Shown: positions 1,005 through 38,700 of the stretch, in pieces | How the letters are laid out: each line of letters begins with the position of its first letter | Numbering within the stretch: position 1 is the stretch's first letter | Sequence record: NZ_CP067423.1 | Origin: a plasmid | Direction: 5' to 3' (one strand) | Length of the DNA stretch: 64,000 nt | Made by a program: the position numbers and the translations under genes | Notes under the pieces: model-generated | The model's database searches: none | The model's input: only the letters and a program-made list of their open reading frames with translations | What the model was told of the DNA's origin: nothing

Positions 1005-1285
1005 CACACCTCTCCTTTGTGCCGTATACAGGATATGAGAGATCCCATAATTGCCCGCCCCGCATAGCCCACCGCGATCAGCGCTCCACCGAGGCTCACC
1101 AGCAGCGTCAATGACCGCCACGGCTGGGGCAGGTCGGCGGTTAACCACCTGACCAGCGGCACCCCTTCGGTCAGGATCAGGACCCCGATGCCGAGAAGGG
1201 CCAGGGAGCCGGCGACGCCGATGGCCAACCCGGGAAGCAGGTAAACCATGGACCGTTTCAGGATCTCGGCGGGATACCCGTTCAT
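1004..1285 (-). CDS. small membrane protein (93 aa, two predicted TM helices), translationally coupled between trbE and the beta-helix gene
   Basis: ORF with two hydrophobic segments. Its start overlaps the trbE stop (ATGA) and its stop overlaps the downstream start. Confidence 0.45.
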   Translation of the reverse strand: MNGYPAEILKRSMVYLLPGLAIGVAGSLALLGIGVLILTEGVPLVRWLTADLPQPWRSLTLLVSLGGALIAVGYAGRAIMGSLISCIRHKGEV

Positions 1286-3735: not shown

Positions 3736-3736
3736 G

Positions 3737-4042
3737 TCAGGTCTCCAAGTCAGTGCGACGGCGCAGAGCGCGCACGGCAAAGCGCAAGAGGTTTTCCTGA
3801 TAGAAGGGATTGTCCTTGGCCAGCATGACGCCGCCGTACCACATCGCGCCCGTGCCCAGGCACAGCACGACGATCACGGAGATGATGTTCCGGCCGCTGG
3901 GGGTGACGGCATACATCGTGAAAACCGTCCCGCAGATCCACCACAGGGCGATTACCAGGACCGTCGAGAGTCGGCAGCTCCCCGGCATGTAAGGATGCTG
4001 TCCACTCCGTCGGATCTCGATGCCGTAATCCAGCGACGCCAT
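3737..4042 (-). CDS. trbD: conjugal transfer protein TrbD (VirB3-like)
   Basis: 101-aa membrane protein lying between the trbC and trbE genes in the canonical trb order. Confidence 0.75.
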   Translation of the reverse strand: MASLDYGIEIRRSGQHPYMPGSCRLSTVLVIALWWICGTVFTMYAVTPSGRNIISVIVVLCLGTGAMWYGGVMLAKDNPFYQENLLRFAVRALRRRTDLET

Positions 4043-4344
4043 CAGGCCCCGCCGAGGCCCAGGACGTATTCGGCCAGCAGCGGCACGCCACCGATGAAGG
4101 CGCCGATCGCGGCACCGACGATGGCCTTGCCGATGCCGCGGCCGGGATCTCCGACCATGGCACCGAGCAGGGCGCCGATGATGGCCAGGCCGACAATCAT
4201 CAACCCGACGTTCTGGATCATGAAGTCCCAGATGTCCTGGGTGAACGTCTCGATGCCGTTGGCAGGGATCTGCGCCAGGGCAGGGCCGGCGAAAGCAGTC
4301 AGGCCCAGGACGATGGCGGCGGAAAGGGACTGGTTCGTCTTCAT
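4042..4344 (-). CDS. trbC: conjugal pilin TrbC (VirB2-like)
   Basis: 100-aa protein with a signal peptide (AFAGPALA) and a Gly/Ala-rich hydrophobic core typical of VirB2/TrbC pilins. ATGA overlap with trbB. Confidence 0.75.
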   Translation of the reverse strand: MKTNQSLSAAIVLGLTAFAGPALAQIPANGIETFTQDIWDFMIQNVGLMIVGLAIIGALLGAMVGDPGRGIGKAIVGAAIGAFIGGVPLLAEYVLGLGGA

Positions 4345-5420
4345 TGGATCAACTCCGAAGAAGAATTGCCGGATATATTATAGCCTGTATTGAGTTGATG
4401 GGGGACATCAACACGGGTCAGTCTGTAACCTGTGGTTTCATCGCAGCCACCGGGCCGGAACACCCCGACGATGTCGCGGCCACCACCCGCCCGGCGCCTA
4501 ATCCAAATGATGCGCTGCAGGGTCTTCATCAGCACGCGACGCTGCGGCACCGGGTCGATGCCGGCCTGCGCCACCATCTGCTCGATGCGGTCAAAGAAAT
4601 CGGCCGGGTTGCTTGCGTGCAATGTCACCAACCCGCCGGTATGGCCGGTGTACTGGGCCATGATGAAAACCCAGAGCACGCCATCGCGGGCTTCGCCGAG
4701 GATGATGCGGTCAGGCCGGCAGCGCAGCGCATCCTTCAGAAGATCCGCCATGTCCAGGCCGATGCTGGACAGGCGCAGCACGTCGGCCACGCACGGAAAC
4801 TGCATCTCCGGCGTATCCTCCAGCGTGACCAGACGATCCGGCTGCACCGCCGGATGATTGGCCATGCTGGTCAGGAGACTGGTCTTGCCGCTGCCGGTCT
4901 CGCCGAACACCGCGACTGTCAGCTTGTTCGCCAAGGCCGCGGCGATGCAGTCCATGGTCGGCAGGCCCTGGCCGATCGTGTCGGTCTCCTCTTGGGCGAA
5001 GTGGACCTCGCGACCCGCGATCGGCGCCACGCCGTCGGCGACGTAGTCCCCAAAAGACCGGATGGTCCTGGGCAGGAAGCGGAGAACCACATAAGGGCCA
5101 CCCACGGCTCGGGGCGGGATGCCGCCCTGGAACCGGATCTGCCCGGGAAGATCGGCGGCGAAGCTCAACCGTCCCCTGCCCTCGGCCACGATGCCGGCGA
5201 AGCGCGCGGCCAGGGTCACGATCTGCTGGCGCCGGTCAGCATCAAACTGGGTCTCAAGCCGGCGCTTGCCGACGGAGCCATAGACGAAGGCTCGACCATC
5301 CGGGTTGATGGCGATGTCCTCGGTACCGGCCTGCGCTGCCAGGGTCTGGATTTCGGCGCCCAGAGCATTGTTCAGCAGGCGTTCGGCCTCGCCCCGCTCA
5401 CGATCGGAAAGCGGGATCAT
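4341..5420 (-). CDS. trbB: conjugal transfer ATPase TrbB (VirB11 family)
   Basis: 359-aa protein with Walker A GETGSGKTS and VirB11/TrbB-like sequence. Confidence 0.85.
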   Translation of the reverse strand: MIPLSDRERGEAERLLNNALGAEIQTLAAQAGTEDIAINPDGRAFVYGSVGKRRLETQFDADRRQQIVTLAARFAGIVAEGRGRLSFAADLPGQIRFQGGIPPRAVGGPYVVLRFLPRTIRSFGDYVADGVAPIAGREVHFAQEETDTIGQGLPTMDCIAAALANKLTVAVFGETGSGKTSLLTSMANHPAVQPDRLVTLEDTPEMQFPCVADVLRLSSIGLDMADLLKDALRCRPDRIILGEARDGVLWVFIMAQYTGHTGGLVTLHASNPADFFDRIEQMVAQAGIDPVPQRRVLMKTLQRIIWIRRRAGGGRDIVGVFRPGGCDETTGYRLTRVDVPHQLNTGYNISGNSSSELIQ

Positions 5421-5833
5421 TTTGCCGCCTCCATTTTCTGGACGAGATCCTGCACCTGGCGCACGTGATCGGCCTGGGTGACGGGATGCTGCTCCGGCGG
5501 CAGGTAGCGCAGCCGTGTCTCGAAGTTGGCGATTGCCAGCAGGGTGCGGATCTGGTGAGCCATGCGGTCGATCTGTCCGCGCATCTCGACCAGGGTGGCG
5601 GCGACCGCGTCCGACTGATCGGCAGCCGCGTCAACCTTGCCCATGGCGATGTTGATGCACTGCTCGACGATGGCGTTGCGCGACCACTTGCCTTGCATCT
5701 GCGCCTCGATCCAGGCGTCCTGCTCCTCGGCGAACAGCACCTCCCGGGCCTTCCGGCCGACGTAGCGGTTGCCCCTCGGGCGTCGTGCCCGGCGCTCTGC
5801 CGCCGTCGCGAGTACATTCGTGTCCATCATCAC
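5417..5833 (-). CDS. small hypothetical protein between traG and trbB (possible RHH/TrbA-like regulator)
   Basis: 138-aa ORF tightly coupled to both neighbours (ATGA overlaps at each end). No recognisable catalytic motif. Confidence 0.4.
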   Translation of the reverse strand: MMMDTNVLATAAERRARRPRGNRYVGRKAREVLFAEEQDAWIEAQMQGKWSRNAIVEQCINIAMGKVDAAADQSDAVAATLVEMRGQIDRMAHQIRTLLAIANFETRLRYLPPEQHPVTQADHVRQVQDLVQKMEAAK

Positions 5834-5834
5834 C

Positions 5835-7439
5835 TCACATCATCAGCGGAACATCGTCGGCCGGTATCGGGGTTGGTGTCTGGATGGGCTCGGGCACGGG
5901 GTCTGGTTTTGCCGCCGGCTTCACCGGCACCTTGGCCTTGAACCTCTTGTTCTTCTTCTCCTCGGCCTTCCCGGGCTCAGGTGCTGGACCCCGTACCGAC
6001 GGTTCCTCGAAGCAAATGGCGTCCCACAGGTTTCGGGCACCCACCTCGAGCGGCAGATCCAGGAAGGCACCCTTGTCGTCGCGCACCGGCAGGAACTCGA
6101 CGTCTAGCGGTAACCAGGACCTTGGCGCTGGGTTGACCAGCGAGCGCCAGCTGCTCAGCGGCGGCCGGCTGACTTTGATCGGCTTGGTGTAGCCGCAGAC
6201 CAGGACGTCGTCCTCCGACAGCCGCAACACCGCCTCGGTCGGCAGGATCGGCTTGCGCACCCGGGACCGTGTCAGCCCGGCGCCCCGGCGCTCGCCGCCG
6301 GCGCCGTAACTGGCGTTGTCGGACTCTGCGGTGACCTCGACGAAACCGATCGCCTTCGACAGCTTCTCGGCCTCGCCGCTGTCGAACGGGCGCAGGGCGA
6401 CCAGCCGGCTATTGTTGAAGATCAGCGACTTCTCGCCGTAGATCACCGCCAGAACGCCGTCGGACTGGGCGCCCAGCATGGCCCGGCAGTGGTAGGAGCG
6501 CATGTCGGCCATGGCGCCCTCGATGGCGTCGACCTTGCCGAACCGGTTGAACTCGTCAAGCGCGAAAAGCATGCAGTGACGCTTCCACCGGGCACCGATC
6601 CTGTCCTGGTGCCCCATGATCGCGTTCAGGATCTGTGACGTCATCATGCGGACCAGCGGCGCCAGCCTGGCCGAGTGCTCCGGCGGCAGATGCAGGTTCA
6701 GCAGCACCGGGTTCGGCCCGCACATCAGGTCTTCCGGCGAGAACTCGCACGACGATGTTGCAGAGTCGACGCACGGGTCGGCGTAGACGTTCAGATAGCT
6801 ATCTATCGTTGCCAGGATGCTACCGACGTAGCGTTCGTTGTTGTTCTGCCAGATCTTCCGGGCCGCACTGGCGATCTCCTCGCGGAGGATCGGGTTCGGG
6901 TGCTGCTGGCGCATCATCCGGTCGCCGCCCTCCCGGCCGGTGGCGTGGAAGCGCCGCAAGCCGCCCAGGTTCCGTTCCTTCGGGTCGCCGAAGTTGGCCA
7001 GGAACATCATCTCGGCCGTGGCGAGCGCCTTGGCGTTCTCGTCCCAGATCGGCTCTTTTGCCTGGCTCGTGTCGGTATGCGGGAGCAGGGCAGCGAGGTT
7101 CTGGAACCCGGCGATCTGATCCACTCCAGTTCCGACGCGGGCCATGGGATTGTACCTGACGCTGTCCGGCAGGGTCGGCGCGAACAGCAGGTTATGCCGC
7201 CACCGGCTGGAACCCTGGAGCAGCAGCCAAAAGTCACCCTTGCGGTCATGCACGATGGCGCTGCCCCGCCAGGTCCGCATCAGCGTCGGCAGGAAGAACG
7301 AGGCGGTCTTGCCCGACCCTGTCGGACCGGTAACCCGAACATGCATCTGGTGCCGGTCAATCAGCAGGCGCCCGTCTGCCGTCGCTCCGACGGTGATCCC
7401 GCCAGGGTCGGCTATCACCGGCCGGTTCTCGAAATCCAT
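5835..7439 (-). CDS. traG: type IV coupling protein TraG/VirD4, main body (N-terminal TM segment appears to lie in another frame, 7415-7690)
   Basis: Walker A VTGPTGSGKTAS. Similarity to VirD4 begins at MDFENRP (ATG 7439-7437, preceded by GAGGGG). The ATPase motif sits only about 40 aa from this start, so the usual N-terminal membrane domain is missing from this frame. Confidence 0.8.
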   Translation of the reverse strand: MDFENRPVIADPGGITVGATADGRLLIDRHQMHVRVTGPTGSGKTASFFLPTLMRTWRGSAIVHDRKGDFWLLLQGSSRWRHNLLFAPTLPDSVRYNPMARVGTGVDQIAGFQNLAALLPHTDTSQAKEPIWDENAKALATAEMMFLANFGDPKERNLGGLRRFHATGREGGDRMMRQQHPNPILREEIASAARKIWQNNNERYVGSILATIDSYLNVYADPCVDSATSSCEFSPEDLMCGPNPVLLNLHLPPEHSARLAPLVRMMTSQILNAIMGHQDRIGARWKRHCMLFALDEFNRFGKVDAIEGAMADMRSYHCRAMLGAQSDGVLAVIYGEKSLIFNNSRLVALRPFDSGEAEKLSKAIGFVEVTAESDNASYGAGGERRGAGLTRSRVRKPILPTEAVLRLSEDDVLVCGYTKPIKVSRPPLSSWRSLVNPAPRSWLPLDVEFLPVRDDKGAFLDLPLEVGARNLWDAICFEEPSVRGPAPEPGKAEEKKNKRFKAKVPVKPAAKPDPVPEPIQTPTPIPADDVPLMM

Positions 7440-7690
7440 CTCGAGATTCCCCTCTTCATCGGTTTGATCAGCCCGAACTGCACCAGGTCGGCCTCGGTTG
7501 CCCAGGCCGCCTCGACCTGGTCCTCCGTGCCCCGCATTCGCGGATTGAGCAGCCGGCTGGTGATCCGGGTGGCGGCGATCTTCACGACCACGACGAGACC
7601 GACCATGCCGACCAGCAGCCCCAGCCCGGCCGGAACGAACCACCATTCATGCTGGGCGACCTGCGCCCAGACCCACCATTCGCGGATCAC
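7415..7690 (-). pseudogene. traG: traG 5' segment in a different frame (probable frameshift or sequencing error); encodes one TM helix plus a VirD4-like juxtamembrane motif
   Basis: GTG at 7690-7688 overlaps the relaxase stop (GTGA). Translation VIREWWVWAQVAQHEWWFVPAGLGLLVGMVGLVVVV...NPRMRGTEDQVEAAWATEADLVQFGLIKP resembles the TraG/VirD4 N-terminus (TM helix followed by a conserved segment). It ends 25 nt inside the traG main ORF. Confidence 0.45.
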
Positions 7691-8463
7691 TCCAGCCCTC
7701 CCTCTCGGCCGTGCGACCGCCCGGCCTGGCGGACCGGCACGCCGGTGTTCGGGTCCAGCCCCATCTGCTGCCGGCGCTCCTGGACCGCCTTGCACTTCGC
7801 GTCCGGGTCGACTCCGCGCTCTGCCCGGTATCCCAGATGCTGGGTCGCAACCTCCCTCGCCCTGGCCCGGAGGCCATGCGAGACGTACCCACTCGACAGG
7901 CGTAAATTCCTGTCTTCCACCCTGGCCCGCATCACCACGTGAGTGTGCGGATGGTCGGTGTCCCAGTGCTGGACGGCCATCCATTCGAGCTTCACGCCGC
8001 GCCGCTGTTCGTCCTCGGTCAGCAGATCCTTTTCCACCTTGCCCATGACCTCGCGGGTGTAGGCCTCCAGGTCGAGCCGGTGTCCTTCCTCCGGGGAGAG
8101 GATGAATTTGTAGTACCTGTTGTCCTCGCCCCAGCCATGGACCTGGGCAAACATCTCATCCCGGGTCGCCGGATTGCCGTCTTGGTCGATCCCCTTCAGT
8201 TCGCCCTCGCGGGTGATGTACCTGATGTTGTCCCGAAGCGACCGTTTGAACGCGGGCTGCCCGTTGTGCGCCGCCCGGTACTTCACCTTGACCATGACCC
8301 GCTGCGCGAACCGCCCAGGCTTGACGGTCCACCGACCGCGCACCGTGACGCCCGTCGCCGGCATCGGCACCCGGCGCACCGCCTGGGCCTCTGGCGTCTT
8401 GTGATGGCGCACAGGTCGTAGTTGCAGCCCGGCCGGGCGGCCCAGCGTCACCGGAGCTCGCAT
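7687..8463 (-). CDS. conjugative relaxase, N-terminal nuclease domain (RlxS/VirD2-like, MOB family); short and possibly C-terminally truncated
   Basis: Arg-rich N-terminus, motif I with candidate catalytic Tyr (RDNIRYITREGE) and histidine triad HWDTDHPHTHVVM. The ORF extends upstream to 8544 and the true start is uncertain. Confidence 0.6.
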   Translation of the reverse strand: MRAPVTLGRPAGLQLRPVRHHKTPEAQAVRRVPMPATGVTVRGRWTVKPGRFAQRVMVKVKYRAAHNGQPAFKRSLRDNIRYITREGELKGIDQDGNPATRDEMFAQVHGWGEDNRYYKFILSPEEGHRLDLEAYTREVMGKVEKDLLTEDEQRRGVKLEWMAVQHWDTDHPHTHVVMRARVEDRNLRLSSGYVSHGLRARAREVATQHLGYRAERGVDPDAKCKAVQERRQQMGLDPNTGVPVRQAGRSHGREGGLE

Positions 8464-8879
8464 CAGCGGCGCCTCGGCAACCGGCGCCGCCTCCTCGATC
8501 CGATCCCGTCCATTCACTCCCTCCCCGAGAATGATATACATCATATCCCAATTTCACGGCAGAACGAAGCCCGGTACAGACCGGAGCACGACCCGGAACA
8601 TCTCCGGATGTCCGGAGCAGCAGATCCGGCGCAGGATTGCGTAGAAGATCAAAGGTTTATCATGGCTCCCGTAGGGAGTTATCTTGCACCCCCGCTTCGC
8701 ACCCCTGATCCGGCGTTGCCCGGTCCCCTTTCGACCAGAGGGCCTAAAGATGTCACAGGGCGCCTATGGCTGTGCGATCGGTAATCCAGGGCCGGAAGAG
8801 CTGTCTCGTCGCAGGAAGCGCCCTCCACTGCGAGAGGGGCCACTGAGCTCCCGACGCCGAACTCATGGACAATTATGAG

Positions 8880-16802: not shown

Positions 16803-17324
16803 ATGACCAATGACAGAACTGCCAACATCGTCGGTGCACTCGCCCTGGCCGTCGTCGACACCCTGCTCCGCGAAGCCCAGGCCGCGGCGCCGGAGCCGGG
16901 ACCCGCCGCGGCCGCCATATCGCTGCTTGCCCACGATCCGGGCATGTCGATCGACCGGCTGCGGCGCGCACTCGGTCTGTCGCATCCCGGTGCGGTTCGT
17001 CTGGTCGACCGCCTGGTGGCGGATGGGGCCGTGGTCCGGGAAGTCTCTGATCGCGACCGTCGTGCCGTCGCACTTCACTTGACCGAAGCGGGCCGAAGGA
17101 CCTGCGCGAACATTCGGGGCGCGCGGCTGCACAGCCTCACGAAGGTGCTCGATTTGCTTGATGCGGACGAACGCGCCACTCTGGGCATGCTGACCGAGAA
17201 GCTGCTGCGCGGACTCGTTGGGACCGAGGACCAGGCCTACTCGGTCTGCCGGCTCTGCGACGAGAGCGTGTGCGCGGACTGCCCCGCCGCCAGCGCATTG
17301 GGGCCCCCCAACGCGATCGGCTGA
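16803..17324 (+). CDS. MarR family transcriptional regulator
   Basis: 173-aa protein with a winged HTH (MSIDRLRRALGLSHPGAVRLVDRLVADGAVVREVSDRDRRAVALHLTEAGR). Confidence 0.8.
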   Translation: MTNDRTANIVGALALAVVDTLLREAQAAAPEPGPAAAAISLLAHDPGMSIDRLRRALGLSHPGAVRLVDRLVADGAVVREVSDRDRRAVALHLTEAGRRTCANIRGARLHSLTKVLDLLDADERATLGMLTEKLLRGLVGTEDQAYSVCRLCDESVCADCPAASALGPPNAIG

Positions 17325-17763: not shown

Positions 17764-18957
17764 TCAGGGTTCGTCAGGTGCTGGTCCGTCGGCTCCATCA
17801 CCGGGCGGGAACGGCTTCTCGCCCCGGGCGATGCGGTCGAGCAGGCGGCGTACCCCGCGGGTCCGCTCGTCGGCCGCCGCGACCAGCCGGTCCAGGGCGT
17901 CGAAGTCGAAGCTCACCGGCGCCAGCCGCGCGGGTTCGACCGGATCCGCGTCCGGCCGCACCGCGACTTCCGCGGGGTCGGTCGCCAGTTCCGCGAACGG
18001 CGGGGTCAGCACCCGCCTGGGCCGGCCCCGCGGTCCGCCCCGGGCCCGGCGCCGGGCGGCGGTGGTCTCGGCGCGGATCGGCAGCAGGCGCTTGAGGCCG
18101 TAGAGCCGGCGTGCGCCCCGCCCGGCCCGGCCGGTCACCTCGGCGGCGACCTCGAGCCCGACCAGCGCGTCCAGCATCCGCGACGCGCCCTCGACCGAGC
18201 AGCCCAGCGCGTCGGCCAGGGCCGAGACGCTGAGCAGCGGCGAGGCGGCCAGCAGGTCGACCGCCGCCGGCAGCCGGGAGTTGGACCGGCCGCCGGCGCG
18301 CCGGTCGACCCGGTTGCGGGCCTCGCGCCACTCCCGCTCCATCGTCAGCAGCAGGTCACGGCCGTCGGCGGCCTCGCGCAGGACCGCCTCGAGGAAGCGC
18401 ACCGTGAACCCGTCGGGATCGGCGGCACCCGCCCGCAGCGCGTCGCCCCCGGTGACGGCGGCCAGCAGGTGGATGGTGGTCCCGCGCTCACGCAGGTACA
18501 GCGGCACGGCGGCGCGGATTGCCGGCCGGCTGCCCTGCCCGGCCAGCCACTCCAGCATGCCCAGCGCGGCGGCGACCAGGGCCGGCCGGTCGCGGCCGCT
18601 GGCGCGCAGGCTGTCCAGGGCGGCGTCGCGCAGGGCCGCCTGCCCGGCATCGGGCGCCGCCAGCCACCCCCGCAGGCCGACCGCGTGGTTCAGCCCGGTG
18701 ATCTCCCGGCCGCGGTCGATCGGCGGCGCGGCGGGATCGGTCCGGAGCGGCAGGCCGTGCAGGTGGGCGGCCAGGCGGTAGGGATCGACCTTGTGGCCGT
18801 CCGCCCCGGCGTGGCGACACGCGGCGTCGAGGCCGCTCCAGACGGCCCAGGCCGGCCGCAGCGGGGTGTCGGCCAGGGCGGCGTCTAGGCGGCCGACGGC
18901 GGTGGCGGCGGCTTCGAGCGCCCCGGCGACCGGGCCCGCGACGAACAGTTCGGCCAT
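17764..18957 (-). CDS. conserved hypothetical protein, paralog A (HTH-containing; the other copy is at 60434-61612)
   Basis: 397-aa protein from ATG 18957-18955 (RBS GAGGAGAGAG). About 75-80% identical to the 60434-61612 product. HTH-like segment LSVSALADALGCSVEGASRMLDAL. Confidence 0.6.
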   Translation of the reverse strand: MAELFVAGPVAGALEAAATAVGRLDAALADTPLRPAWAVWSGLDAACRHAGADGHKVDPYRLAAHLHGLPLRTDPAAPPIDRGREITGLNHAVGLRGWLAAPDAGQAALRDAALDSLRASGRDRPALVAAALGMLEWLAGQGSRPAIRAAVPLYLRERGTTIHLLAAVTGGDALRAGAADPDGFTVRFLEAVLREAADGRDLLLTMEREWREARNRVDRRAGGRSNSRLPAAVDLLAASPLLSVSALADALGCSVEGASRMLDALVGLEVAAEVTGRAGRGARRLYGLKRLLPIRAETTAARRRARGGPRGRPRRVLTPPFAELATDPAEVAVRPDADPVEPARLAPVSFDFDALDRLVAAADERTRGVRRLLDRIARGEKPFPPGDGADGPAPDEP

Positions 18958-19105
18958 TCCTGCTCTCTCCTCATCGACCGGGATCCGGCACGGCTCCGGG
19001 AATCGGGCAGCGTCCTTGTATAAGAACTTCCTTGTCATATCAATTGAGTAGACAAGAAATTCTACCGTAACCGCATTTAACTTGATAGTCCGCTGATTTC
19101 CGTCT

Positions 19106-19156
19106 GCCACGTCGTCATGTCCGATAATGTTCAATTATCGGACATGACGACGTGGC
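19106..19156. promoter_or_regulatory. perfect 23-bp inverted repeat with 5-nt loop (core TCCGATAAT/ATTATCGGA) upstream of paralog A
   Basis: GCCACGTCGTCATGTCCGATAAT-GTTCA-ATTATCGGACATGACGACGTGGC. A related palindrome precedes paralog B at 61756-61787. Confidence 0.5.
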
Positions 19157-19890
19157 GGCCAATGTCGTTGTCGGTCAGTTCGTGAGAAAAGCCGGATTCT
19201 GCGCGGTTGGGCACCCTGTCAGGCCCTGTTTTGCAGACCGGATCATGCTAAATGTTTTGAGCCGTTCATGCGAAAAGCCCGCCACCCGGACGCGGGGCAT
19301 CACCGCACGCTGTTGAAAAACAAGCCTTTTTCCAAAAAGGAAGCTTGAGGACGTAGCCCGTCCAGGGACCTGACTGTTGCCCGACATCCCGCCGCATCAT
19401 GACGCCGAAACGCCCTCGCGGTTCATCTCGTCCCGATCGGCCAGTCCCCACCGGCAGCAGGGGCACACCGGGCATCACCACCGCCGTGACGCTTAGGTAT
19501 TTCACCAAACGGCCATTTGTTGGCAGCTGCGAGTTTGGTAAAATGGTTGAAGACGCCGCCTGCGGCTCTGACCTACAGTGTCGCTGCTGGGCGGTTCAGT
19601 GGATTCGGCCTGTTTCCTGCACTTTATTGGCTAAACCCAGCCGATTTGCGGGGTGGATCGCTGGAACTGCTGGACGGTTCCGTACAGCGCTCGCTGGCCC
19701 GTTTCGCCGCCGGTCTCCGCTCACGTCATCCTCTCTTCCCCATCAGAAGCCGTGCGTGCCCGCATCGTCAGAACGTCCCCCTGCACGCGGGGTGTAAAGA
19801 AAGTGGCGTGTAACGAAACGACCGTTTCCTTCCGTGTTCCTGAACTTTACAAAGGGGGTGGACGACACTCTTACGGCTTGGGGAAACACT

Positions 19891-20775
19891 ATGGCGCTCA
19901 TCGGCTATGCCCGCGTTTCGACCGACGAGCAGACCACTGCCGCCCAAATGGACGCGCTGCGCGCCGCCGGCTGCACGGAAGTCTTCGAGGAGAAGGCTTC
20001 CGGCGCCTCCCGCGCCCGGCCGGAGCTGGCGCGAGCCCTAGCCCGTATTGGTCGCGGCGACACGCTGGTTATCTGGAAGCTGGACCGGCTTGGCCGCTCC
20101 CTGTCGCACCTGCTGGAGGTGATCGAGGATCTGCGCGACCGCGGCTCTCACTTCCGCTGCCTGACCAGCCCGATCGATACCGCCAGCCCGCACGGGACGC
20201 TGGTGCTCCAGATGCTGGGCGCCGTAGCGGAGTACGAGCGCTCGCTCATCCGCGAGCGGACACGGGCCGGGCTTAAGGCGGCCAAGGCGCGGGGCAGGGT
20301 CGGGGGTAACCCCAAGCTCAAACGGGGCGACAATGCAGCGGCGCGGCGTCTGGCCGACCGGCAGCGGCAGCTGTATCTGCTGGACTTGACCCGCACGGCC
20401 GAGGAGTGGTTGCCCACCGTACGGCGGCTGCGGCCGGTGCGCTCCTGGGCAGCGGTGACTCGTGCCGTGAACGCCAAGCTGCCGCCCGCCCGCCACTGGA
20501 CGGTCGAGCGCCTGCGCCGCGCCGTGCGCACCTTCGTCGCGGAAGGACTGGCGGAGCGGATGCTGTTGGACAAGGTGCCGTCGGTCCGCGGCGACGATCG
20601 GCTTATGGTGCTGGTCGCCGGCATCGCCCGGGCGAATCCGAAGCTGTCGCTGCGCGCCATTGGGGCCCAGTTGGAGGCGATGCGCGAGACCACGCCGCGG
20701 GGTGGCCGCACCTGGGCGGCTGGGTCGGTCAAAAGCCTGCTGGATCGCGCCCGTGCTCAAGGGTTGCTGGCCGTA
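19891..20775 (+). CDS. serine recombinase (resolvase/invertase family with long C-terminal extension), 3' end replaced by an ISAzo13 insertion
   Basis: N-terminus MALIGYARVSTDEQ with catalytic Ser and GDTLVIWKLDRLGRS. The ORF runs into the IS terminal repeat; the last 24 codons are IS-derived. Confidence 0.75.
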
Positions 20776-22100
20776 AGGAGACGCGCAGGAATAATTAAGA
20801 CATATTGGTGTGATGTTTCCGGTGTAGGCTATGATCTTCGCTGGTGATTGCCATATCGGGCGGCATGATTGATGAGCATGCGATACGAGAGCGGTACGAG
20901 GCGATCCGGGACCAGTTGGACGAGCGTGGACGACGCCTGTTTGCGGCGGCTGAGGCAAGGTCTGCGGGACGCGGTGGGGTGGTGGCCGTGTCGCGGGCAA
21001 CCGGTCTGGCGCGCGGCACCGTCGAGCGGGGGCTGAAGGATCTTGACCAGCCAGCGCCGCCCGGCGGGCGTGTCCGCCGGGCCGGGAGCGGGCGGCGGCG
21101 CCTGACAGCCAAGGATCCAACGCTGCTGGAGGACCTGCGTCGCCTGGTCGAGCCGGTCACGCTCGGAGACCCGATGAGACCGCTGCTGTGGGTCTCCAAG
21201 AGCCACGTCAAGCTGGCCAAAGCACTGCAGAAGATGGGTCACGCGGTCAGCCCGAATACGGTGCGCAAGCTGTTGCACCAGCTCGGCTATGGCCGCCGGG
21301 CCAATCGCAAGGCCAATGATGGACGCCAGCATGCCGACCGTGACGCTCAGTTCGAGCACATCAATGCCCGGGTCCTGGCCTTTCAGGCCGAGGATCAGCC
21401 GGTGATCTCGGTCGACACCAAGAAGAAGGAGCTGGTCGGTAACTACACCAACAAGGGCACCGAGTACCGCCCCGAAGGCCAGCCACGGCGGACCGAAGTT
21501 CATGACTTCGAGAACAAGGACCTCGGCAAGGTCGTGCCCTACGGCGTCTACGATCTGGCCGACAACAGCGGCTGGGTCAGCCTCGGCGTGACCAGCGACA
21601 CCGCCGAGTTCGCGGTCAACGCCATCCGCTCCTGGTTCGACAACAAAGGTCGCGACCTCTATCCCGCGGCCTCCCGGCTGATGATCACGGCCGACTGCGG
21701 CGGCTCCAATGGAGCTCGCGTGCGGCTGTGGAAGCGTGAGCTTCAGGACCTGGCCGACCAGACCGGGCTGACGATCTCGGTGTGCCACTTCCCGCCCGGA
21801 ACCTCGAAGTGGAACAGGATCGAGCATCGCCTTTTCTGCCATATCACGCAAAACTGGCGTGGCCATCCCTTGACCAGCCGCCTGGCCGTGATCGAACTGA
21901 TCGCCGCTACCACCACAACGACCGGCCTGACGGTCGAGTGCGAACTGGACACCAACACTTACCAGAAGGGTGTCAAGGTCACCGCCGCTGAAATGGCCAC
22001 CCTCAACATTGAGCGCGACGGCTTTCATCCGGAATGGAACTACACCATCGCGCCGCGCCACATACCTCATAACTGATCCAGTTATTTATGCGCGTCTCCT
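20776..22100 (+). mobile_element. ISAzo13-family insertion sequence (about 1.3 kb)
   Basis: Terminal inverted repeats AGGAGACGCGCA at 20776-20787 and 22089-22100 (reverse complement). It encloses one transposase gene. Both flanking genes (recombinase and tniQ) lose their 3' ends to it. Confidence 0.7.
20865..22076 (+). CDS. ISAzo13-family DDE transposase
   Basis: Motif ISVDTKKKELVGNYTNKG and the overall ISAzo13-type layout. Confidence 0.75.
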   Translation: MIDEHAIRERYEAIRDQLDERGRRLFAAAEARSAGRGGVVAVSRATGLARGTVERGLKDLDQPAPPGGRVRRAGSGRRRLTAKDPTLLEDLRRLVEPVTLGDPMRPLLWVSKSHVKLAKALQKMGHAVSPNTVRKLLHQLGYGRRANRKANDGRQHADRDAQFEHINARVLAFQAEDQPVISVDTKKKELVGNYTNKGTEYRPEGQPRRTEVHDFENKDLGKVVPYGVYDLADNSGWVSLGVTSDTAEFAVNAIRSWFDNKGRDLYPAASRLMITADCGGSNGARVRLWKRELQDLADQTGLTISVCHFPPGTSKWNRIEHRLFCHITQNWRGHPLTSRLAVIELIAATTTTTGLTVECELDTNTYQKGVKVTAAEMATLNIERDGFHPEWNYTIAPRHIPHN

Positions 22101-23050
22101 AAGTCCGCCCCCGGTGTCAGCATCAGAGCCATCGGACCTTCCATCCAATCCGTGACGAGCGATTGCGCATAATCGATGGCAAGCGCCGCGACCAACATCA
22201 CTTGCACCTTATGGGCATGGCTCAGGAACTCATAGGGAAGTTCCCGCACGGCTCCCCAGGGCTGGCGGAACCCGGCCTCGGTCCAGAGATCGGCAACCCG
22301 GTTTCCCAACGCCGAGGTGTCCTGGGCGAAGCGGCACACCTCCTCCAGGGCGGCGCGCAGCAGCCGGACCCAGGTTCCGCCCTCGATCATGGTATGCGTC
22401 AAGGCGACGGAGCCGCGCGTGACCGCCTCCAGGGTCAAGGTGTCCAGCCGCACAAGCGAGGCGTCGGGGCGGCCCCGGGCGATTGCCGGCGCGGTCGGCA
22501 TCCAGCCGCGCCCCGGCCAGACAAGGACCCGGCGCAGGAAGGTGCCATGCCGGGGGCAGGTGAGCATCCAGGGGAGATCCCAGATGAACCGCCGATAGGG
22601 GAGCGGATCCTCTTCGAGGCACCCGACGCAGCCCCATTGACCGATCCATTGCGTGTCGATCCAGGGCGCAGTCTCCTTGCGCGCACCCGGCCGCCCGAGC
22701 CTTGTCAGCAGCCCGAACCGGTCGATGCAGTGTGCAAGATTGGCTTGCGGAAAGGCGAAACCGTCCAGCAGTACCGGCACCAGCGACACCGGCGTCATGG
22801 CTCGGATCGTCTCAAACGAATAGCCTGTTTTGTCCGACAACCATGCCAGATCATCTGCCTGTGGCGCGGCACCGGCGAGCGGCCACCCACCGGTCAGACG
22901 GTGGTGACGTCCGAGAAGCTCCACAATCACCAAGCCATAGACGCTGGCCATGCGCTGCAGCCAACTCGTCAGGATCTCTCCTGGCAGAGGCGGCGGAACG
23001 ACCGGCCAGGGACCAGGTGCGTCGCGGTCCTCGGCCGGATCTGCCTTCAC
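22082..23050 (-). CDS. tniQ: TniQ (TnsD-like) transposition target-selection protein, 3' end truncated by ISAzo13
   Basis: N-terminal PPLPGEILTSWLQRMASVYGL TniQ signature. GTG start overlaps the tniB stop (GTGA). The last codons lie inside the IS terminal repeat. Confidence 0.7.
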   Translation of the reverse strand: MKADPAEDRDAPGPWPVVPPPLPGEILTSWLQRMASVYGLVIVELLGRHHRLTGGWPLAGAAPQADDLAWLSDKTGYSFETIRAMTPVSLVPVLLDGFAFPQANLAHCIDRFGLLTRLGRPGARKETAPWIDTQWIGQWGCVGCLEEDPLPYRRFIWDLPWMLTCPRHGTFLRRVLVWPGRGWMPTAPAIARGRPDASLVRLDTLTLEAVTRGSVALTHTMIEGGTWVRLLRAALEEVCRFAQDTSALGNRVADLWTEAGFRQPWGAVRELPYEFLSHAHKVQVMLVAALAIDYAQSLVTDWMEGPMALMLTPGADLGDAHK

Positions 23051-23919
23051 GATGGCGCCGGAGCCTGGCAATGCTGCAGGACATCCGCGGCGGTGATGCG
23101 CTCCTCGCCGGAGCGGATTGCGTGGATGCCCAGCTCCGCCAAGGTGCCGAACACAGTGGCGGCGACGCCGTCGCCGTGGGTGGCCAGCGCCTTGACCGCG
23201 CGCACGGTCATCACCGAGGGGCGGCGCAGGGGCAGCCACCGCAGCACGCTGCCAACCAACGTGTCGAACTCCGGTCCTGGGTCCCAGCACGGCAGCTCGA
23301 CCGAGCGGAACCGGCGCGCCAGCTGGCGGTCATGGAACAGCGCCTCGCGGGCATCGCGCGTGCCGAACAAGGCCAGTGGGACTTGAAGCGTATTGGAGAG
23401 ATGCCGGATCACGGCCAGCATCGTCCGCTGCTGCCGCACCGAGCCCAGCAGCATGTTATGCGCCTCGTCCACCAGGATCTGCCGGACGCCGATCATGCGG
23501 TAAAGCTGGATCACCCGGTCTGCCAGGCGTGGAACCGGCGATCTGGTCGCGGCCGGCGGCGTCCCGATCGCAGCCAACAGGGCCTCGTAGAACCAGCGCA
23601 CGTCGCAGACCGGGGGCATCTCCACAGCGACGACCGGTGTCCGGCGGATGCCGGCCGCCAGGTCGGCCACGATAGGATGCTGCCGCAGATGCCGGTGCAG
23701 GATCGTGGTCTTGCCTTGGCCGGGGTCTCCCCAGACCAGCAGGTTAGGGGCAGCGACGGCTCCGGCCCCGGCCAGTTGCTCCTCCATGAGATCAAGCACC
23801 TGCCGACAGCGTGGGTATTCCATGAACCACCGCCGTCGCATCCACGCAATCCGCTCAACGTCCGGAAGCCGGGCCGTATCGTGTGCCTCCGGCGTCAGAT
23901 GCCCGTAGCCATCAGCCAT
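23047..23919 (-). CDS. tniB: TniB AAA+ ATPase (Tn402/Tn5053-type transposition)
   Basis: Walker A GDPGQGKTT and Walker B ILVDEAHN. Confidence 0.85.
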   Translation of the reverse strand: MADGYGHLTPEAHDTARLPDVERIAWMRRRWFMEYPRCRQVLDLMEEQLAGAGAVAAPNLLVWGDPGQGKTTILHRHLRQHPIVADLAAGIRRTPVVAVEMPPVCDVRWFYEALLAAIGTPPAATRSPVPRLADRVIQLYRMIGVRQILVDEAHNMLLGSVRQQRTMLAVIRHLSNTLQVPLALFGTRDAREALFHDRQLARRFRSVELPCWDPGPEFDTLVGSVLRWLPLRRPSVMTVRAVKALATHGDGVAATVFGTLAELGIHAIRSGEERITAADVLQHCQAPAPS

Positions 23920-25564
23920 CGCCAGAATCCGCCTCGTAGTACGGCAGCAGGAGCGGTGCATCCTCATCCACATCGGCGTCCGGCGCGGAGCACCCGATGG
24001 CAGGGAACAGCAGATCGCGCATCGGCCGCGCACCACTGCGAGCGAGTGCCAGTCTCGCTTTCCGACTGCGGCCGCGCGCTTCCTCCAGCGTTTTGCGCCG
24101 GGCGAGGATCATGTCGAACACCATCCCCTCATCCACGCCGGCACGGCCCTGCCGCCGCAAGACGCGGACCGCGGCGCGGTGCTCCCACAGCGAAATGGCG
24201 GGACGGCGCAGATTGCGGTACGCGACTTGAAGATAGCCGCCGGCTGCCCCGCGGACATGCACCTGGGCCAGGTTGGCCGGGTCATAGTGCACCATGACCT
24301 TTCGGCGGTCGTGCAGCAGCGGCAGCAGGGCGTCATGCCAGTAGCGGATTCCAAACATGTGGATGCCGTCGCGCTGCACCGTCCGCTCCTGCCAGGGCAG
24401 GAAGTCGTAATGGAACTCCCGCAGGTCGGGCGGCAAGCGCGGGGTCGCGCCGGCAGTCAGTTCCCGCCATCGGGCGATTGGTGCCGTGGCGATCGCGCTG
24501 TGGAAGCTGGCGTTGTGTTCGAGAATGATGCTCGCCACCATCCACTCGATCTCGGTGATGGTGAGGCAGGCGTTGCCCTCGGCGTCGTAGGCGCCGCGCT
24601 CCTGGATATTGGAGAAGGTCGAGCCGTCCAGGAGGTGCAGCTCCTGCGAGAGATGGCCGAGACGCCGCTCGACATGGCCGCCGAAGTGCGGCCGCCGCAC
24701 CGGCCTGTGCCGAACGGCGATACCGTAATCCTCGCAGGCACGGGTAAAGGCGCGCGAGTGGAATTCCTTGCCGTTGTCGACATGGATGGTCTCGGGCAGG
24801 CCGCAGACCGGCCAAGCAGCTGGCAGCTTCCGGTCCTCCAGCCACGCTCCCTTGTCCATGACGGCGTGCAGCAGGCAACAGGCGACACTTGTGGCCGAGG
24901 GAGGATCGAAGGTGAGATGGAAGCCTGCATACATCCGCGAGCAGACGTCGATGGCGAGCGTGATGAAGGGGCGCCCGATAGGCTCCAGCGTCTCCGGCTC
25001 GACGGCGATAACGTCGGCCGGCGTGTGGTCGACCTGCAGCAATTCCAGCGGCCGCTCCGCCCGACAGGCGCCCAGCACCGGATCAAAGGCGTCGGCGGCT
25101 GCTTTGGGGCCGTGCCGCCGCCGTGTGCTCTCGCGGCGGCTGATGCTCGCCAGGCGCTTGGTGACGGTCTCTCGGTCGGGAGCGGGGAGCGCGGCGGCGT
25201 GGCAGCGCGCCTGGATGTCGCGGGTGAGCTTGGCCTTGCTTGGGCGCAGTTGCTGCAGATAGTTGTTCTGGATTTCGTCGGCGACGATCGCTTCGACCTG
25301 CGGGTCAAGATGTCGGCCGCCTGGGCTTGGACCCGGACGACGGGGCAGGAGTGACCGCGTCCGCGGATCCGCCCTGTAGACACGCAGCAGGCGATACAGG
25401 TAGCCGAGGCTGATCGCCAATTCCTCAGCCGCGGCGGACGCCAGCTCGATGCTCGGGCCGGACCTTTCGGCCTGTTGGATGAGACGCCGCAGGACAGCTT
25501 CCCGTGCTCGCGCCACCGCCCAGTGGTCGTCATCGGCTTGGTCCGGGGCGGGCGGGTGCTTCAC
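23912..25564 (-). CDS. tniA: TniA/TnsB-like Mu-type DDE transposase
   Basis: 550-aa protein with an rve-type core (LQVDHTPADV...HVDNGKEF) and a Mu-transposase C-terminal region. Confidence 0.85.
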   Translation of the reverse strand: MKHPPAPDQADDDHWAVARAREAVLRRLIQQAERSGPSIELASAAAEELAISLGYLYRLLRVYRADPRTRSLLPRRPGPSPGGRHLDPQVEAIVADEIQNNYLQQLRPSKAKLTRDIQARCHAAALPAPDRETVTKRLASISRRESTRRRHGPKAAADAFDPVLGACRAERPLELLQVDHTPADVIAVEPETLEPIGRPFITLAIDVCSRMYAGFHLTFDPPSATSVACCLLHAVMDKGAWLEDRKLPAAWPVCGLPETIHVDNGKEFHSRAFTRACEDYGIAVRHRPVRRPHFGGHVERRLGHLSQELHLLDGSTFSNIQERGAYDAEGNACLTITEIEWMVASIILEHNASFHSAIATAPIARWRELTAGATPRLPPDLREFHYDFLPWQERTVQRDGIHMFGIRYWHDALLPLLHDRRKVMVHYDPANLAQVHVRGAAGGYLQVAYRNLRRPAISLWEHRAAVRVLRRQGRAGVDEGMVFDMILARRKTLEEARGRSRKARLALARSGARPMRDLLFPAIGCSAPDADVDEDAPLLLPYYEADSGDG

Positions 25565-25756
25565 GTCGTCTCACCGGATCTGTCCAGCAGGAGTGAACAG
25601 ATCCATCCCACGGTTCCACCGAACCGCCCAGCAGGGCATTGTGTGTAAGCCTTGGGAGCCCTCAGCTCCTGTTGAACTCAACTATCCAGCAGTGACAGCC
25701 GTGGAGCCGTGCTGCGGCCGGAACCCAGGGCGAAACAGTACAAAGGAGCAGGGATC

Positions 25757-26476
25757 ATGGCCATCGTCGGGTATGCGCGCGTCTCCACCGAGGACCAGTC
25801 GACCGAGGCGCAGATCCTCGACCTCAGAAAGTTCGGCTGTACCGAGATCTTCCGGGAAAACGCCTCGGGTGCTGACCGCGAGCGCCCGCAGCTAAAGGCC
25901 GTCCTGAGCCGGGTCAGGAAGGGCGATACCCTGGTCGTCGTGCGCATCGACCGCCTGGCCCGCTCGCTTGCCCATCTGCTGGACGTCATCGACACCCTGG
26001 AGCGCAGGGACGTGGCCTTCAAGTCACTGGGCGACCCGATCGACACCGGCAGCCCGCAGGGCAAGTTCACCCTGCAGATCCTCGGCGCGGTGGCGGAGTT
26101 CGAACGCTCCCTGATCCGCGAGCGCACCAAGGCCGGCGTGCGGGCCGCCAAGGCGATCGGCAAGAAACCGGGTAACCCCGGCCTGATTGCCAAAGACCCG
26201 CTCTCCCGGCGCCGCGTCGCCCGGGCTCGGGATGATCGCCTGACCGAGCGGGTCATCGCCGGCGCCGACGAGTTCCTTCCCATTGTGCAACGTCTTCGGC
26301 CCGGCCACCCCTGGGACCGTGTCGTGGATGTCCTCAACACGGCGGTGAAGAAGCGCCCCGGCGACAATCCGGCGCCGTGGACGCGCGATGCGCTGATCCG
26401 CGCGGTGCGCCGTCTGGTCGCCGACGGCCTGGCCGATCCCGGCGTGCTGAAAGCCGCCCCGCGCCGCTCCAGAAAG
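25757..26476 (+). CDS. serine recombinase (paralog of 19891-20775), 3' end truncated by IS26-like insertion
   Basis: MAIVGYARVSTEDQ with catalytic Ser. Same architecture as the first recombinase but about 70 aa shorter; the reading frame runs into the IS left end at 26477. Confidence 0.75.
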
Positions 26477-27445
26477 GGGTTTTGTCAGATCTCAGGGCAG
26501 CTTGCCGAGAGCGCTTGCAGCGGATAGGTTCCCGAGCCCATTTTGAGAGATCAAGAGAGCCGCCATGGACTGCCCGCACTGCCGCTCGTCGGCGACTACG
26601 GAGCGGGAGGGGCGAACGGTTCATGGCTTCCGGCGGTTTCGGTGCCGGGATTGTGGGCGGCGGTTCAACGAGCGGACCGGCACGGCGCTGAACCGGGTCC
26701 AGGTCCCGACGGACATCGTGTTTCTCGTGGTCTTCTGGAGATTGCGCTACAAGCTGAGCCTGCGTGATCTGGCGGAGATGTTCCTGATCCGGGGCATCGT
26801 GTTCACCCACGAGGCGGTGCGAGATTGGGAAGCCAAACTGGCGCCACTGCTCAGTGAGGGCCTACGTAAGCGGCGGGCTGGCAAAGCCGGCCGCTGCTGG
26901 CACGTCGACGAGACGTATCTCAAAGTCGCCGGCAAATGGTGCTATCTCTACCGGGCGATCGATCGCGACGGTAACCTGGTCGACGTCTACCTCAGCAAAA
27001 GCCGCGACATGGCAGCGGCCAAGGCTTTCCTTCGTTCCGCCAGGTCGGTCACCCAGGTCGAGCCCGAGCAGGTCACAACCGACGGCCATACCAGCTACCC
27101 TAAGGCCATAACCGACGAACTCGGCACGGACGTCGATCACCGCACCAGTCAGTACAAAAACAACGTGATCGAGCAGAATCACCGGAGCATAAAAGCACGC
27201 TATCGACCGATGCGCGGCTTCAAGAATTTTGATGCGGCTCATCGCTTCTGCCGCGCCTTCGACGAGGTCCACAACTTCCTGCGATCGGCCAGCTACATCA
27301 ACCAGAACGTCTCCCTCGCCCGCCGCCGGACCATCCACGTGCAGCGGGTGGCCGCGTTGCGGGATCTGATCTCCGTCGCATAATACAGCTTCTGGTAGTC
27401 AGACGCTTGTTCAATGCTCAACTTGCCCCGAAAGCTGACAGATCC
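26477..27445 (+). mobile_element. IS6 family (IS26-like) insertion sequence, copy 1 (969 bp)
   Basis: Identical over its full length to 35158-36126. Imperfect terminal inverted repeats GGTTTTGTCAGATCTCAGGGCAGCTTG / GGATCTGTCAGCTTTCGGGGCAAGTTG (reverse complement). Confidence 0.85.
26565..27383 (+). CDS. IS6 family transposase
   Basis: 272-aa protein with a zinc finger (CPHC...CRDC) and an IS6 DDE domain. Confidence 0.9.
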   Translation: MDCPHCRSSATTEREGRTVHGFRRFRCRDCGRRFNERTGTALNRVQVPTDIVFLVVFWRLRYKLSLRDLAEMFLIRGIVFTHEAVRDWEAKLAPLLSEGLRKRRAGKAGRCWHVDETYLKVAGKWCYLYRAIDRDGNLVDVYLSKSRDMAAAKAFLRSARSVTQVEPEQVTTDGHTSYPKAITDELGTDVDHRTSQYKNNVIEQNHRSIKARYRPMRGFKNFDAAHRFCRAFDEVHNFLRSASYINQNVSLARRRTIHVQRVAALRDLISVA

Positions 27446-34939: not shown

Positions 34940-35157
34940 GTGGCGAGCATGGATGAGGTTCATCCCCGAATTCGGTCGCTTGTTGAACTGTGGCAGCTGA
35001 GGTGCGGGCCGGACGACATCCCTTGGCGCAGTGACCTCAGCGTTTTCGCGCTGAAGCCGTGGCTGGGCTGCCTGACCATCTTTGAGGAAATCGAGAAGGG
35101 CAGCGATTATCTCGTTCGCCTCGATGGTCAGGGCGTTGTCGAATTGACCGGCGCCGA
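34940..35157 (+). pseudogene. 5' fragment of a PAS-like sensory domain gene truncated by IS26-like copy 2
   Basis: The frame MASMDEVHPRIRSLVELWQLRCGPDDIPWRSDLSVFALKPWLGCLTIFEEIEKGSDYLVRLDGQGVVELTG runs directly into the IS left end at 35158. Confidence 0.4.
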
Positions 35158-38677: not shown

Positions 38678-38700
38678 CCCGATCACCAAAGGACACGGAC

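Follow-up and report, generated by a model that had tools for sequence, protein, structure and literature searches.

The plasmid sequence NZ_CP067423.1 contains a 64-kb region (the window, meaning the whole stretch of 64,000 nucleotides analysed here) that has a GC content of 64%, is rich in insertion sequences (IS) and most closely resembles Skermanella megaplasmids. It carries two homologous copies of a hypothetical gene, each beside a palindrome and each transcribed divergently from a site-specific recombinase gene; we refer to it as the companion gene. Copy 1 occupies positions 17764-18957 on the minus strand and encodes 397 amino acids (aa) in an open reading frame (ORF) whose GC content at third codon positions (GC3) is 0.88. 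Copy 2, also on the minus strand, occupies 60434-61612 and encodes 392 aa. The two proteins align without gaps and share 303 of 392 residues (77%), in agreement with the 75-80% identity given in a first-pass annotation of the sequence. The recombinase assignments made there were also correct: a serine enzyme with a Resolvase domain stands opposite copy 1, and a tyrosine enzyme with a Phage_integrase domain stands opposite copy 2. In the family tree, copy 1 has the pTT6-1 gene as its sister, the two products being 94% identical in amino acids, and copy 2 clusters with genes from S. aerolata and metagenomes. Because the copies fall in different clades, they do not stem from a recent local duplication, and the tandem-like duplication that the first-pass annotation had raised as a competing explanation can be dropped.

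Each companion gene lies about 150 bp from a palindrome of the form TCCGATAA-N7/8-TTATCGGA. At copy 1 the palindrome spans 19106-19156, and its 23-nt arms (19106-19128 and 19134-19156) are 100% complementary and separated by 5 nt. The palindrome at copy 2 (61755-61788) reads TAACTTCCGATAA-CGCCCCCT-TTATCGGAAGTTA, with arms at 61755-61767 and 61776-61788 and 8 nt between them; these arms measure 13 nt, one more than first annotated, while the 23-nt arms described for copy 1 were right. Within the longer palindromes lie the two conserved cores. The copy 1 core at 19120-19142 is TCCGATAA-TGTTCAA-TTATCGGA, an 8+7+8 arrangement with exact arms, and the copy 2 core at 61760-61783 has the same exact arms around an 8-bp centre. 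In the 64 kb there are exactly two matches to the pattern TCCGATAA-N(0-20)-TTATCGGA, compared to 0.00 expected from 100 shuffles. An Rfam scan of the whole window returned no family, and a full-text literature search for TCCGATAA produced unrelated primer matches only.

The palindromes correspond to a site that has been defined experimentally. The att site of the Rhizobium etli recombinase IntA, TCCGATAAGCATTACTTATCGGA, is 23 bp long, with a divergent centre between the two arms of a palindrome. This sequence is enough for recombination of attA with either attA or attD, forwards and in reverse, IntA catalysing integration and excision alike (PMC4928290), and recombination at att underlies cointegration of p42a with the symbiotic plasmid (PMC4928290, PMC3224233). 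Both window sites carry the two arms of attA exactly, and the copy 1 core has the attA geometry. The likeness to attA and attD of R. etli CFN42 (p42a, p42d) thus covers the core of TCCGATAA, a centre of about 7 bp and TTATCGGA. On R. etli p42a we located TCCGATAAGCAGTACTTATCGGA at 2595-2617 of the sequence examined, 108 bp upstream of a gene for a 382-aa integrase that is presumably IntA; the ACTTCCGATAA arm extension is common to this site and copy 2. A blastn search placed the copy-1-type site, CATGTCCGATAAT...ATTATCGGACATG, in intergenic DNA of 51 plasmids from Agrobacterium, Rhizobium, Methylocystis, Rhodobacterales and even Shewanella, and a megablast search of plasmids with the copy 2 att region found no match. 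Judged by their sequence, the window palindromes are IntA-type att sites, a site type already known and not a new element. Perfect arms have been extended independently to 23 nt in the window (19106-19156) and to 21 nt in a Falsirhodobacter locus (L058, ~3495-3540), and the two extensions are unrelated in sequence. The arms of most other att sites measure 11-13 nt.

Copy 2 pairs its att with a tyrosine recombinase gene at 61939-63006 on the plus strand (355 aa as the longest ORF; Pfam Phage_integrase and Phage_int_SAM_1, SAM-like). The product has a SAM-like core-binding domain and a catalytic domain, without an arm-binding domain. Its catalytic residues are complete (R183, K222, H303-x-x-R306, H329 and Y338), and an alignment with the enzymes of p42a, pRlvC, Falsirhodobacter and pTT6-1 shows no variation at R, K, HxxR, H and Y. 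An N-terminal NTxRA..D..WC motif is common to the window, p42a and pTT6-1 recombinases. The window enzyme is 90-93% identical to those of loci L004, L026 and L047 and 44% identical to the pTT6-1 integrase. It aligns along its full length with the p42a integrase at 28.8% identity over 309 aa (E-value 9e-18), and the p42a integrase is 28-30% identical to the window and pTT6-1 enzymes. By these comparisons the window recombinase clearly belongs to the same superfamily as the p42a integrase and forms a separate lineage, and copy 2 appears to be a complete IntA-like module. It shares with the R. etli system a site ~100-190 bp upstream of the tyrosine recombinase, the conserved catalytic residues, and a plasmid-borne, alphaproteobacterial setting. 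It differs in the 28-29% identity of the recombinases, in the 8-bp spacer of copy 2, and in its host family, the Azospirillaceae. A further difference is that the annotation of p42a shows neither a DUF1403 nor a pseudo-Fic gene next to the site, where the divergent neighbour encodes a 95-aa hypothetical protein. For copy 1, no tyrosine recombinase was found within the 64-kb window.

The first-pass annotation had proposed a survey of relatives for the triad of gene, palindrome and recombinase. We gathered 13 loci from genomes and 33 from metagenomes, together with annotated plasmids, and compared about 35 relatives for pairing. A divergent tyrosine or serine recombinase was present in about 23 of the 35. 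Eleven loci have a tyrosine partner (copy 2, L001, L004, L006, L008, L009, L010, L016, L026, L043 and L047) and 12 a serine partner (copy 1, L005, L007, L012, L013, L020, L031, L034, L041, L042, L045 and L051); others, including Acetobacteraceae plasmids, L021 and L033, have no recombinase partner. In a scored search, the palindrome was intact in 10 of the 11 tyrosine-paired loci, L043 having the variant TACTACCCAYAA-N6, but it was at background level or decayed in 10 of the 12 serine-paired loci, all but copy 1 and L031. Absence of the palindrome from homologous loci, which the first-pass annotation had counted against its own reading, is found in one class of locus and not in the other: the palindrome tracks the tyrosine recombinase, not the companion gene. 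Within the companion tree, tyrosine- and serine-paired genes are interleaved in the Skermanella and Azospirillum clades alike, and the partner has therefore been exchanged repeatedly. The architecture that the first-pass annotation judged conserved and not due to chance stands as a recombination module; what does not stand is the palindrome as a new regulatory element of the hypothetical protein.

Copy 1 pairs with a different enzyme. Its serine recombinase gene lies at 19891-20847 on the plus strand (the ORF opens at 19834, and the likely start is the ATG at 19891), about 735 bp from the palindrome. The product contains the PF00239 domain (E-value 1.5e-46, aa 23-155) and the catalytic YARVST motif. 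Native sequence extends to ~20774, and the last ~11 codons have been replaced by the end of an ISAzo13 element. This element (20775-22076) is inserted in the 3' end of the recombinase gene and is 98.6% identical to an S. mucosa copy. Its transposase gene (20844-22076, plus strand; DDE_Tnp_ISAZ013, E-value 2e-134) is not part of the module. Over 294 aa the serine recombinase is 88% identical to the enzyme of A. lipoferum 4B, compared to ~40-45% for the adjoining companions, and the serine cassette therefore moves independently.

Between the palindrome and the serine recombinase gene lie two conserved non-coding elements. The first, ~140 bp long at 19163-19306, starts 7 bp past the att palindrome and is 94% identical to L002, 86% to L005 and 76% to L012 of Azospirillum; it is also present in L023 and L031. 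It holds an internal direct repeat, GTTCGTGAGAAAAGCC / GTTCATGCGAAAAGCC. The second is an inverted repeat at 19499-19544, TTCACCAAAC-N22-GTTTGGTAAA, with 10-nt arms conserved in L002, L013, L023 and L031. Both are specific to serine-paired loci (L002, L005, L012, L013, L023 and L031), Azospirillum included, and as far as we could tell neither has been described before. They are likely to be parts of the serine recombinase's own site, the inverted repeat being a candidate crossover site. The att at copy 1 is probably not the site of the serine recombinase, and everything on that side is a swapped-in cassette.

Pairwise comparison of the loci on either side of att locates the junction of this swap. 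Between copy 1 and L001, identity is 95% in the companion coding sequence and 79% in the proximal flank, and falls to 2 of 7 positions in the spacer and ~60%, the level of unrelated sequence, in the distal flank. Copy 1 and L031 give the reverse pattern, with 78% in the coding sequence, 56% in the proximal flank, 6 of 7 in the spacer and 80% in the distal flank. A third pair, L031 and L024, shares 92% of the coding sequence and 71% of the proximal flank, with spacers TTGAATA and TTCAAGA and 50-59% in the distal flank. Homology thus switches partner between the spacer and the proximal arm, inside att, a breakpoint that crossing-over at a tyrosine-recombinase core would be expected to leave. On this evidence copy 1 appears to be a pTT6-1-like companion gene with its proximal half-att joined to a serine-recombinase cassette that contributes the spacer and all distal sequence.

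Two simpler histories were considered and set aside. A recent one-event hybrid does not by itself explain the 23-nt arms of copy 1, because the combination of a serine-type flank and an att, whether intact or decayed, is old and common to L031, L005, L023 and L002. The two window sites could also be pictured as flanking an excisable 42.6-kb segment; their spacers differ in sequence and length.

The companion protein combines an enzyme fold with a DNA-binding domain. We built an AlphaFold (AF2) model of copy 1 on 45 relatives (mean confidence score, pLDDT, 84). An all-helical, degenerate Fic domain (~aa 9-220) is followed in this model by a winged helix (229-296) and then by a disordered linker that is rich in Arg and carries an RGRP (AT-hook-like) motif; the protein ends in a helix (352-377). 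Foldseek matched the model to SoFic (3ZCN/3EQX) and an M. marinum protein (7CB8) with E-values of 3e-6 to 6e-5 over ~360 columns and a template-modelling (TM) score of ~0.55. These Fic/Fido proteins likewise carry a C-terminal winged helix after the Fic core, and the match is full-length; the family profile also finds 7cb8 by hmmsearch (E-value 6e-9). They differ from the window family at the active site. Opposite the Fic motif HPFTDGNGR, the family reads L-[EDA]-W-L-A-G-Q-G-S-R (MLEWLAGQGSRPAIR in copy 1 and MLAWLAGQGSRPAIR in copy 2), with no His conserved at the motif position, and neither copy contains the catalytic motif HPFx[D/E]GN[G/K]R with its invariant His. The companion thus joins an inactive Fic domain to one that binds DNA.

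The first-pass annotation had suggested a DUF1612/HTH_DUF4172-type protein. That guess pointed to the right fold, since DUF1612 has been described as a remote Fic-like domain with a winged helix (Kinch et al., PMC2686095), and the two window proteins have weak matches to HTH_13 (PF11972; 19.4 and 20.1 bits, cut-off 26.1) and RHE_PE00001 (NF040876; 40.4 and 31.7 bits, cut-off 250, C-terminal part only). It does not hold at the family level: the scores fall below the curated cut-offs (40 against 250 bits, and 19-20 against 26.1 for HTH_13), and none of 45 family members matches DUF1612 (PF07756), which makes the window family a sister of DUF1612 and not a member. Neither do the window proteins have a Pfam match to DUF1403 (PF07183). 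Profile-profile alignment nevertheless supports DUF1403 as the nearest family at that level, and the window family as a relative within its superfamily, not a member: hhalign in global mode, with three DUF1403 sequences, gave 97.3% probability and an E-value of 6e-11 over 273 columns (residues 1-287). Both families end the winged helix with GRxxxRxYGL. We counted 107 close relatives of the window proteins and ~790 representatives at 50% clustering; those in the plasmid collection come mostly from Rhodospirillales plasmids. A literature search found no paper mentioning DUF1403.

DUF1403 also occurs in a module that resembles the window loci and is known from annotation only, on plasmids of Rhizobiales and Rhodobacterales. 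On the plasmids with the copy-1-type site, the site lies between a DUF1403-ScpB operon and a tyrosine recombinase gene, and the DUF1403-linked recombinase is 61-63% identical to the pTT6-1 enzyme that pairs with the copy 1 orthologue. We found this recombinase in 717 plasmid records. The order ScpB, DUF1403, att, recombinase, beside repABC, was present in all five records sampled across the 717-record ranking and in L057 and L058, sometimes with a toxin-antitoxin pair inside the layout. Overall, each of eight inspected loci had DUF1403, att and a tyrosine recombinase next to repABC. The likeness to the window includes the att of copy 1 (CATGTCCGATAA...TTATCGGACATG), a homologous divergent companion (97% by hhalign) with the same GRxxxRxYGL end, and a fixed distance from att to the companion start. 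The differences lie in the gene and its surroundings. DUF1403 proteins are ~320 aa long and end at the winged helix, and a ScpB-like gene follows; the window family has a ~110-aa tail (the RGRP linker and the helix) and no ScpB, the next gene or genes encoding a 504-aa protein, MucR or both. Only in the window family did we see serine recombinases as partners. The triad of gene, att and recombinase would be old and widespread, because DUF1403 is homologous to the window family and has a like layout on the sampled plasmids. A search of the literature on repABC together with multimer resolution, tyrosine recombinases and ScpB found nothing relevant.

Rhizobium leguminosarum pRlvC (L057 3551-6185) has two tandem tyrosine recombinase genes downstream of one att. 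The first is of the DUF1403-associated type, and the second encodes a protein with 79% identity to the presumed IntA, the integrase beside att on p42a; two distant recombinase lineages may therefore share one site on this plasmid. A canonical DUF1612 gene behaves differently. RHE_PE00001 on R. etli p42e (L063 176-1312), which is reported to be essential (PMC9022086), directly follows repC without att or recombinase, and we therefore do not extend the triad to the DUF1612 family. Related proteins on Acetobacter plasmids are also near repC, and regions for plasmid maintenance seem to be the general setting of the superfamily.

The DNA next to the companion genes is also partly conserved. An AT-rich stretch between att and companion gene copy 1 (18958-19105, minus strand) is homologous in all Skermanella-clade loci in an alignment of 14 upstream regions, and is presumably the promoter or leader and possibly accessory or operator DNA. 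The upstream regions of the two window copies align, including a GGAAGT[T/G]CTT..CAAG block, the one that the first-pass annotation assigned to the promoter regions. This bears out the homology that the first-pass annotation saw there; as promoters the regions are less clear, since consensus scans of both intergenic regions gave one weak promoter-like match each and zero terminators. Downstream of the companion in Skermanella lie a MucR/Ros regulator gene (57079-57552, plus strand; Pfam ROS_MUCR) and a gene for a 504-aa hypothetical protein without a Pfam match (57604-59118, minus strand). By tblastn, both adjoin the companion in L001, L004 and L007, and MucR alone does so in L005, L023, L024 and L026; the two genes may belong to the same functional block as the companion. 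Neither is present at copy 1, where a MarR gene (16803-17324) takes their place.

Other mobile DNA surrounds both loci. Tn5053/Tn402-like genes lie ~3-4 kb from the copy 1 att (22082-26527) and encode TniB (23047-24036), a Mu-type TniA (23912-25564) and a resolvase (25709-26527). Genes for TniB, TniQ and TniA also adjoin att modules on R. leguminosarum pRlvC, Methylocystis pGW6_2, Nitrobacter plasmid 2 and a metagenome contig; the stretches concerned are L057 1-1760 (pRlvC), L060 3761-7032, L067 1-1026 and L021/L022 6940-7116. Transposons of the Tn5053/Tn402 family target plasmid resolution sites ("res hunters"), and tni genes beside att modules would fit the modules being resolution loci. Two directly repeated, 100% identical 969-bp copies of an IS6-family element with a 272-aa transposase (26476-27444 and 35157-36125) bracket ~7.7 kb in a composite-transposon-like arrangement; the bracketed genes encode a 1109-aa Toprim/DUF7146 protein and a CHASE4-GGDEF-EAL protein. 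The window also contains two separate conjugation gene sets (1282-8544 and 37562-41510), which include a VirB11-like ATPase, a type IV secretion system coupling protein, a relaxase fragment and TrbI. This suggests that two or more conjugative plasmids or elements contributed to the region.

Given this evidence, we consider it quite probable that the two loci are IntA/att-type modules for plasmid site-specific recombination. In the att core, the recombinase would bind each of two 8-bp arms (TCCGATAA / TTATCGGA, with extension to 11-13 bp) and exchange strands in the 7-8-bp centre. At copy 2, the simple Xer-like tyrosine recombinase encoded at 61939-63006 would be the cognate enzyme and, by analogy with R. 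etli IntA, would recombine att with att. Such a reaction would fuse replicons that carry a compatible site and then resolve the fusions or multimers. For IntA, reversible cointegration and resolution of large plasmids is the known function. Copy 1 would have arisen by exchange at att, in which a pTT6-1-like tyrosine module was joined to the serine-recombinase cassette. The companion protein is likely to act as a DNA-binding regulator or as an architectural accessory of the recombination module.

With att lying where the two divergent genes have their promoters, binding of a recombinase to it probably controls the expression of both as well, in the manner of Tn3 resolvase at res. The res site of Tn3 doubles as an operator bound by resolvase, and Tn3/gamma-delta res is like the window att in being a recombination site between divergent genes. 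It differs in that Tn3 resolvase is a serine enzyme acting at a three-subsite res, whereas the window att is a single core for a tyrosine enzyme. Cre-loxP of phage P1, which serves plasmid or replicon resolution, resembles copy 2 in its 13-bp inverted arms, 8-bp asymmetric spacer and adjoining recombinase gene, but its enzyme and site have no sequence relationship to those of the window.

Several observations weigh against modules of this kind. The spacer of copy 2 is 8 bp and not 7, and spacers range from 5 to 8 bp across loci, which is unusual for one recombinase family. Because the window enzyme and the p42a integrase are so distant (28-29% identity), their shared use of a site is argued from the site and not from orthology. 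The distance from att to the companion start is fixed (146-165 bp in the window family and 78-81 bp in the DUF1403 family), but that from att to the recombinase runs from 22 to ~650 bp, and toxin-antitoxin genes may intervene. Moreover, a perfect att occurs without a recombinase within 2.6-3 kb (L021 and L024) or with a serine recombinase (copy 1 and L031). The fixed companion distance and these recombinase-free and serine-paired sites fit an operator bound by the companion equally well.

An operator could in principle account for the palindrome altogether. A dimer of the winged-helix companion would bind the half-sites, autoregulate its own gene and control the divergent recombinase, and recombination would be incidental or absent. 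The palindrome keeps its distance from the companion start in every lineage, whatever the neighbour opposite, and it is perfect in the recombinase-free and serine-paired loci just named. Arm variants also follow companion-gene clades, and the winged-helix recognition region, GRxxxRxYGL included, is conserved with DUF1403. Yet the same 23-bp sequence is the experimentally defined minimal recombination site of IntA (PMC4928290), and the p42a site has an integrase and no companion gene alongside. Closely related companions differ in their site according to the partner, tyrosine in L010 and L016 and serine in L013, L034 and L020, and in L005, L023 and L002 the site has decayed despite an intact gene. 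The homology breakpoints fall inside the palindrome, and half-site spacing that varies by 3 bp is awkward for a rigid dimer. We therefore regard an exclusive operator as improbable. A site that is both att and operator is possible: the fixed companion distance, the variable recombinase distance and the intact att sites without a recombinase argue that the recombination site is also an operator.

It is very improbable that the palindrome acts as a nucleic-acid hairpin or cruciform, such as an RNA leader stem-loop, a transcription insulator or a folded single-strand substrate. The loop or spacer varies freely in length (5-8) and sequence, the arms co-vary with complementarity kept, and their length goes up to 23 nt (copy 1) and 21 nt (L058). 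Structure alone, however, would not require the 8-bp arm sequence to be conserved from Skermanella to plasmids of Rhizobium, Rhodobacterales and Shewanella; the scans found no U-tract or terminator and Rfam no match; and a duplex 23-mer is enough for IntA recombination (PMC4928290). Least probable of all, and close to negligible, is chance or a recent duplication with no functional link to recombinases: IS elements, Tn5053-like genes and remnants of conjugation systems crowd the window and could make the neighbours mere clutter, and distant Acetobacteraceae relatives, L021 and L033 have no recombinase neighbour, but the copies are only 77% identical and of different clades, divergent pairing recurs in ~23 independent loci from isolates and metagenomes and in the homologous DUF1403 system on many plasmids, and the different flanks argue against the loci being copies of one mobile element.

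A more specific role for the companion can be put forward tentatively, and we think it rather unlikely as it stands. Pseudo-Fic/winged-helix proteins of the DUF1403 superfamily would be dedicated partners of plasmid recombinases that bind at or beside att, set the timing or direction of recombination, and serve a tyrosine or a serine enzyme, which would explain the repeated partner swaps. If true, such a partner could govern the choice between cointegration and resolution or act as a topological filter. It would also represent a new class of recombination accessory or regulator, built on a dead enzyme fold and present on hundreds of Ti, symbiosis and roseobacter plasmids.

For the plasmids themselves, IntA-type recombination governs whether large replicons fuse, transfer together by conjugation and separate again, and transfer of the R. 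etli symbiotic plasmid requires it. The same att sequence now extends to Azospirillaceae megaplasmids and is common to tyrosine recombinases from three or more lineages, between which identity is only 28-44%. Natural mosaics with their switch point inside att are direct genomic evidence for the shuffling of segments between replicons. What is new here is the alternative pairing with a serine recombinase and the conserved, uncharacterised pseudo-Fic/winged-helix companion linked to DUF1403. On Ti, symbiosis and roseobacter plasmids, genes of the DUF1403 superfamily adjoin the replication genes and keep a constant distance to att. For DUF1403 and related proteins these loci yield a hypothesis that can be tested, and for the IntA-based genome-engineering tool they supply natural variants of the att arms and spacers.

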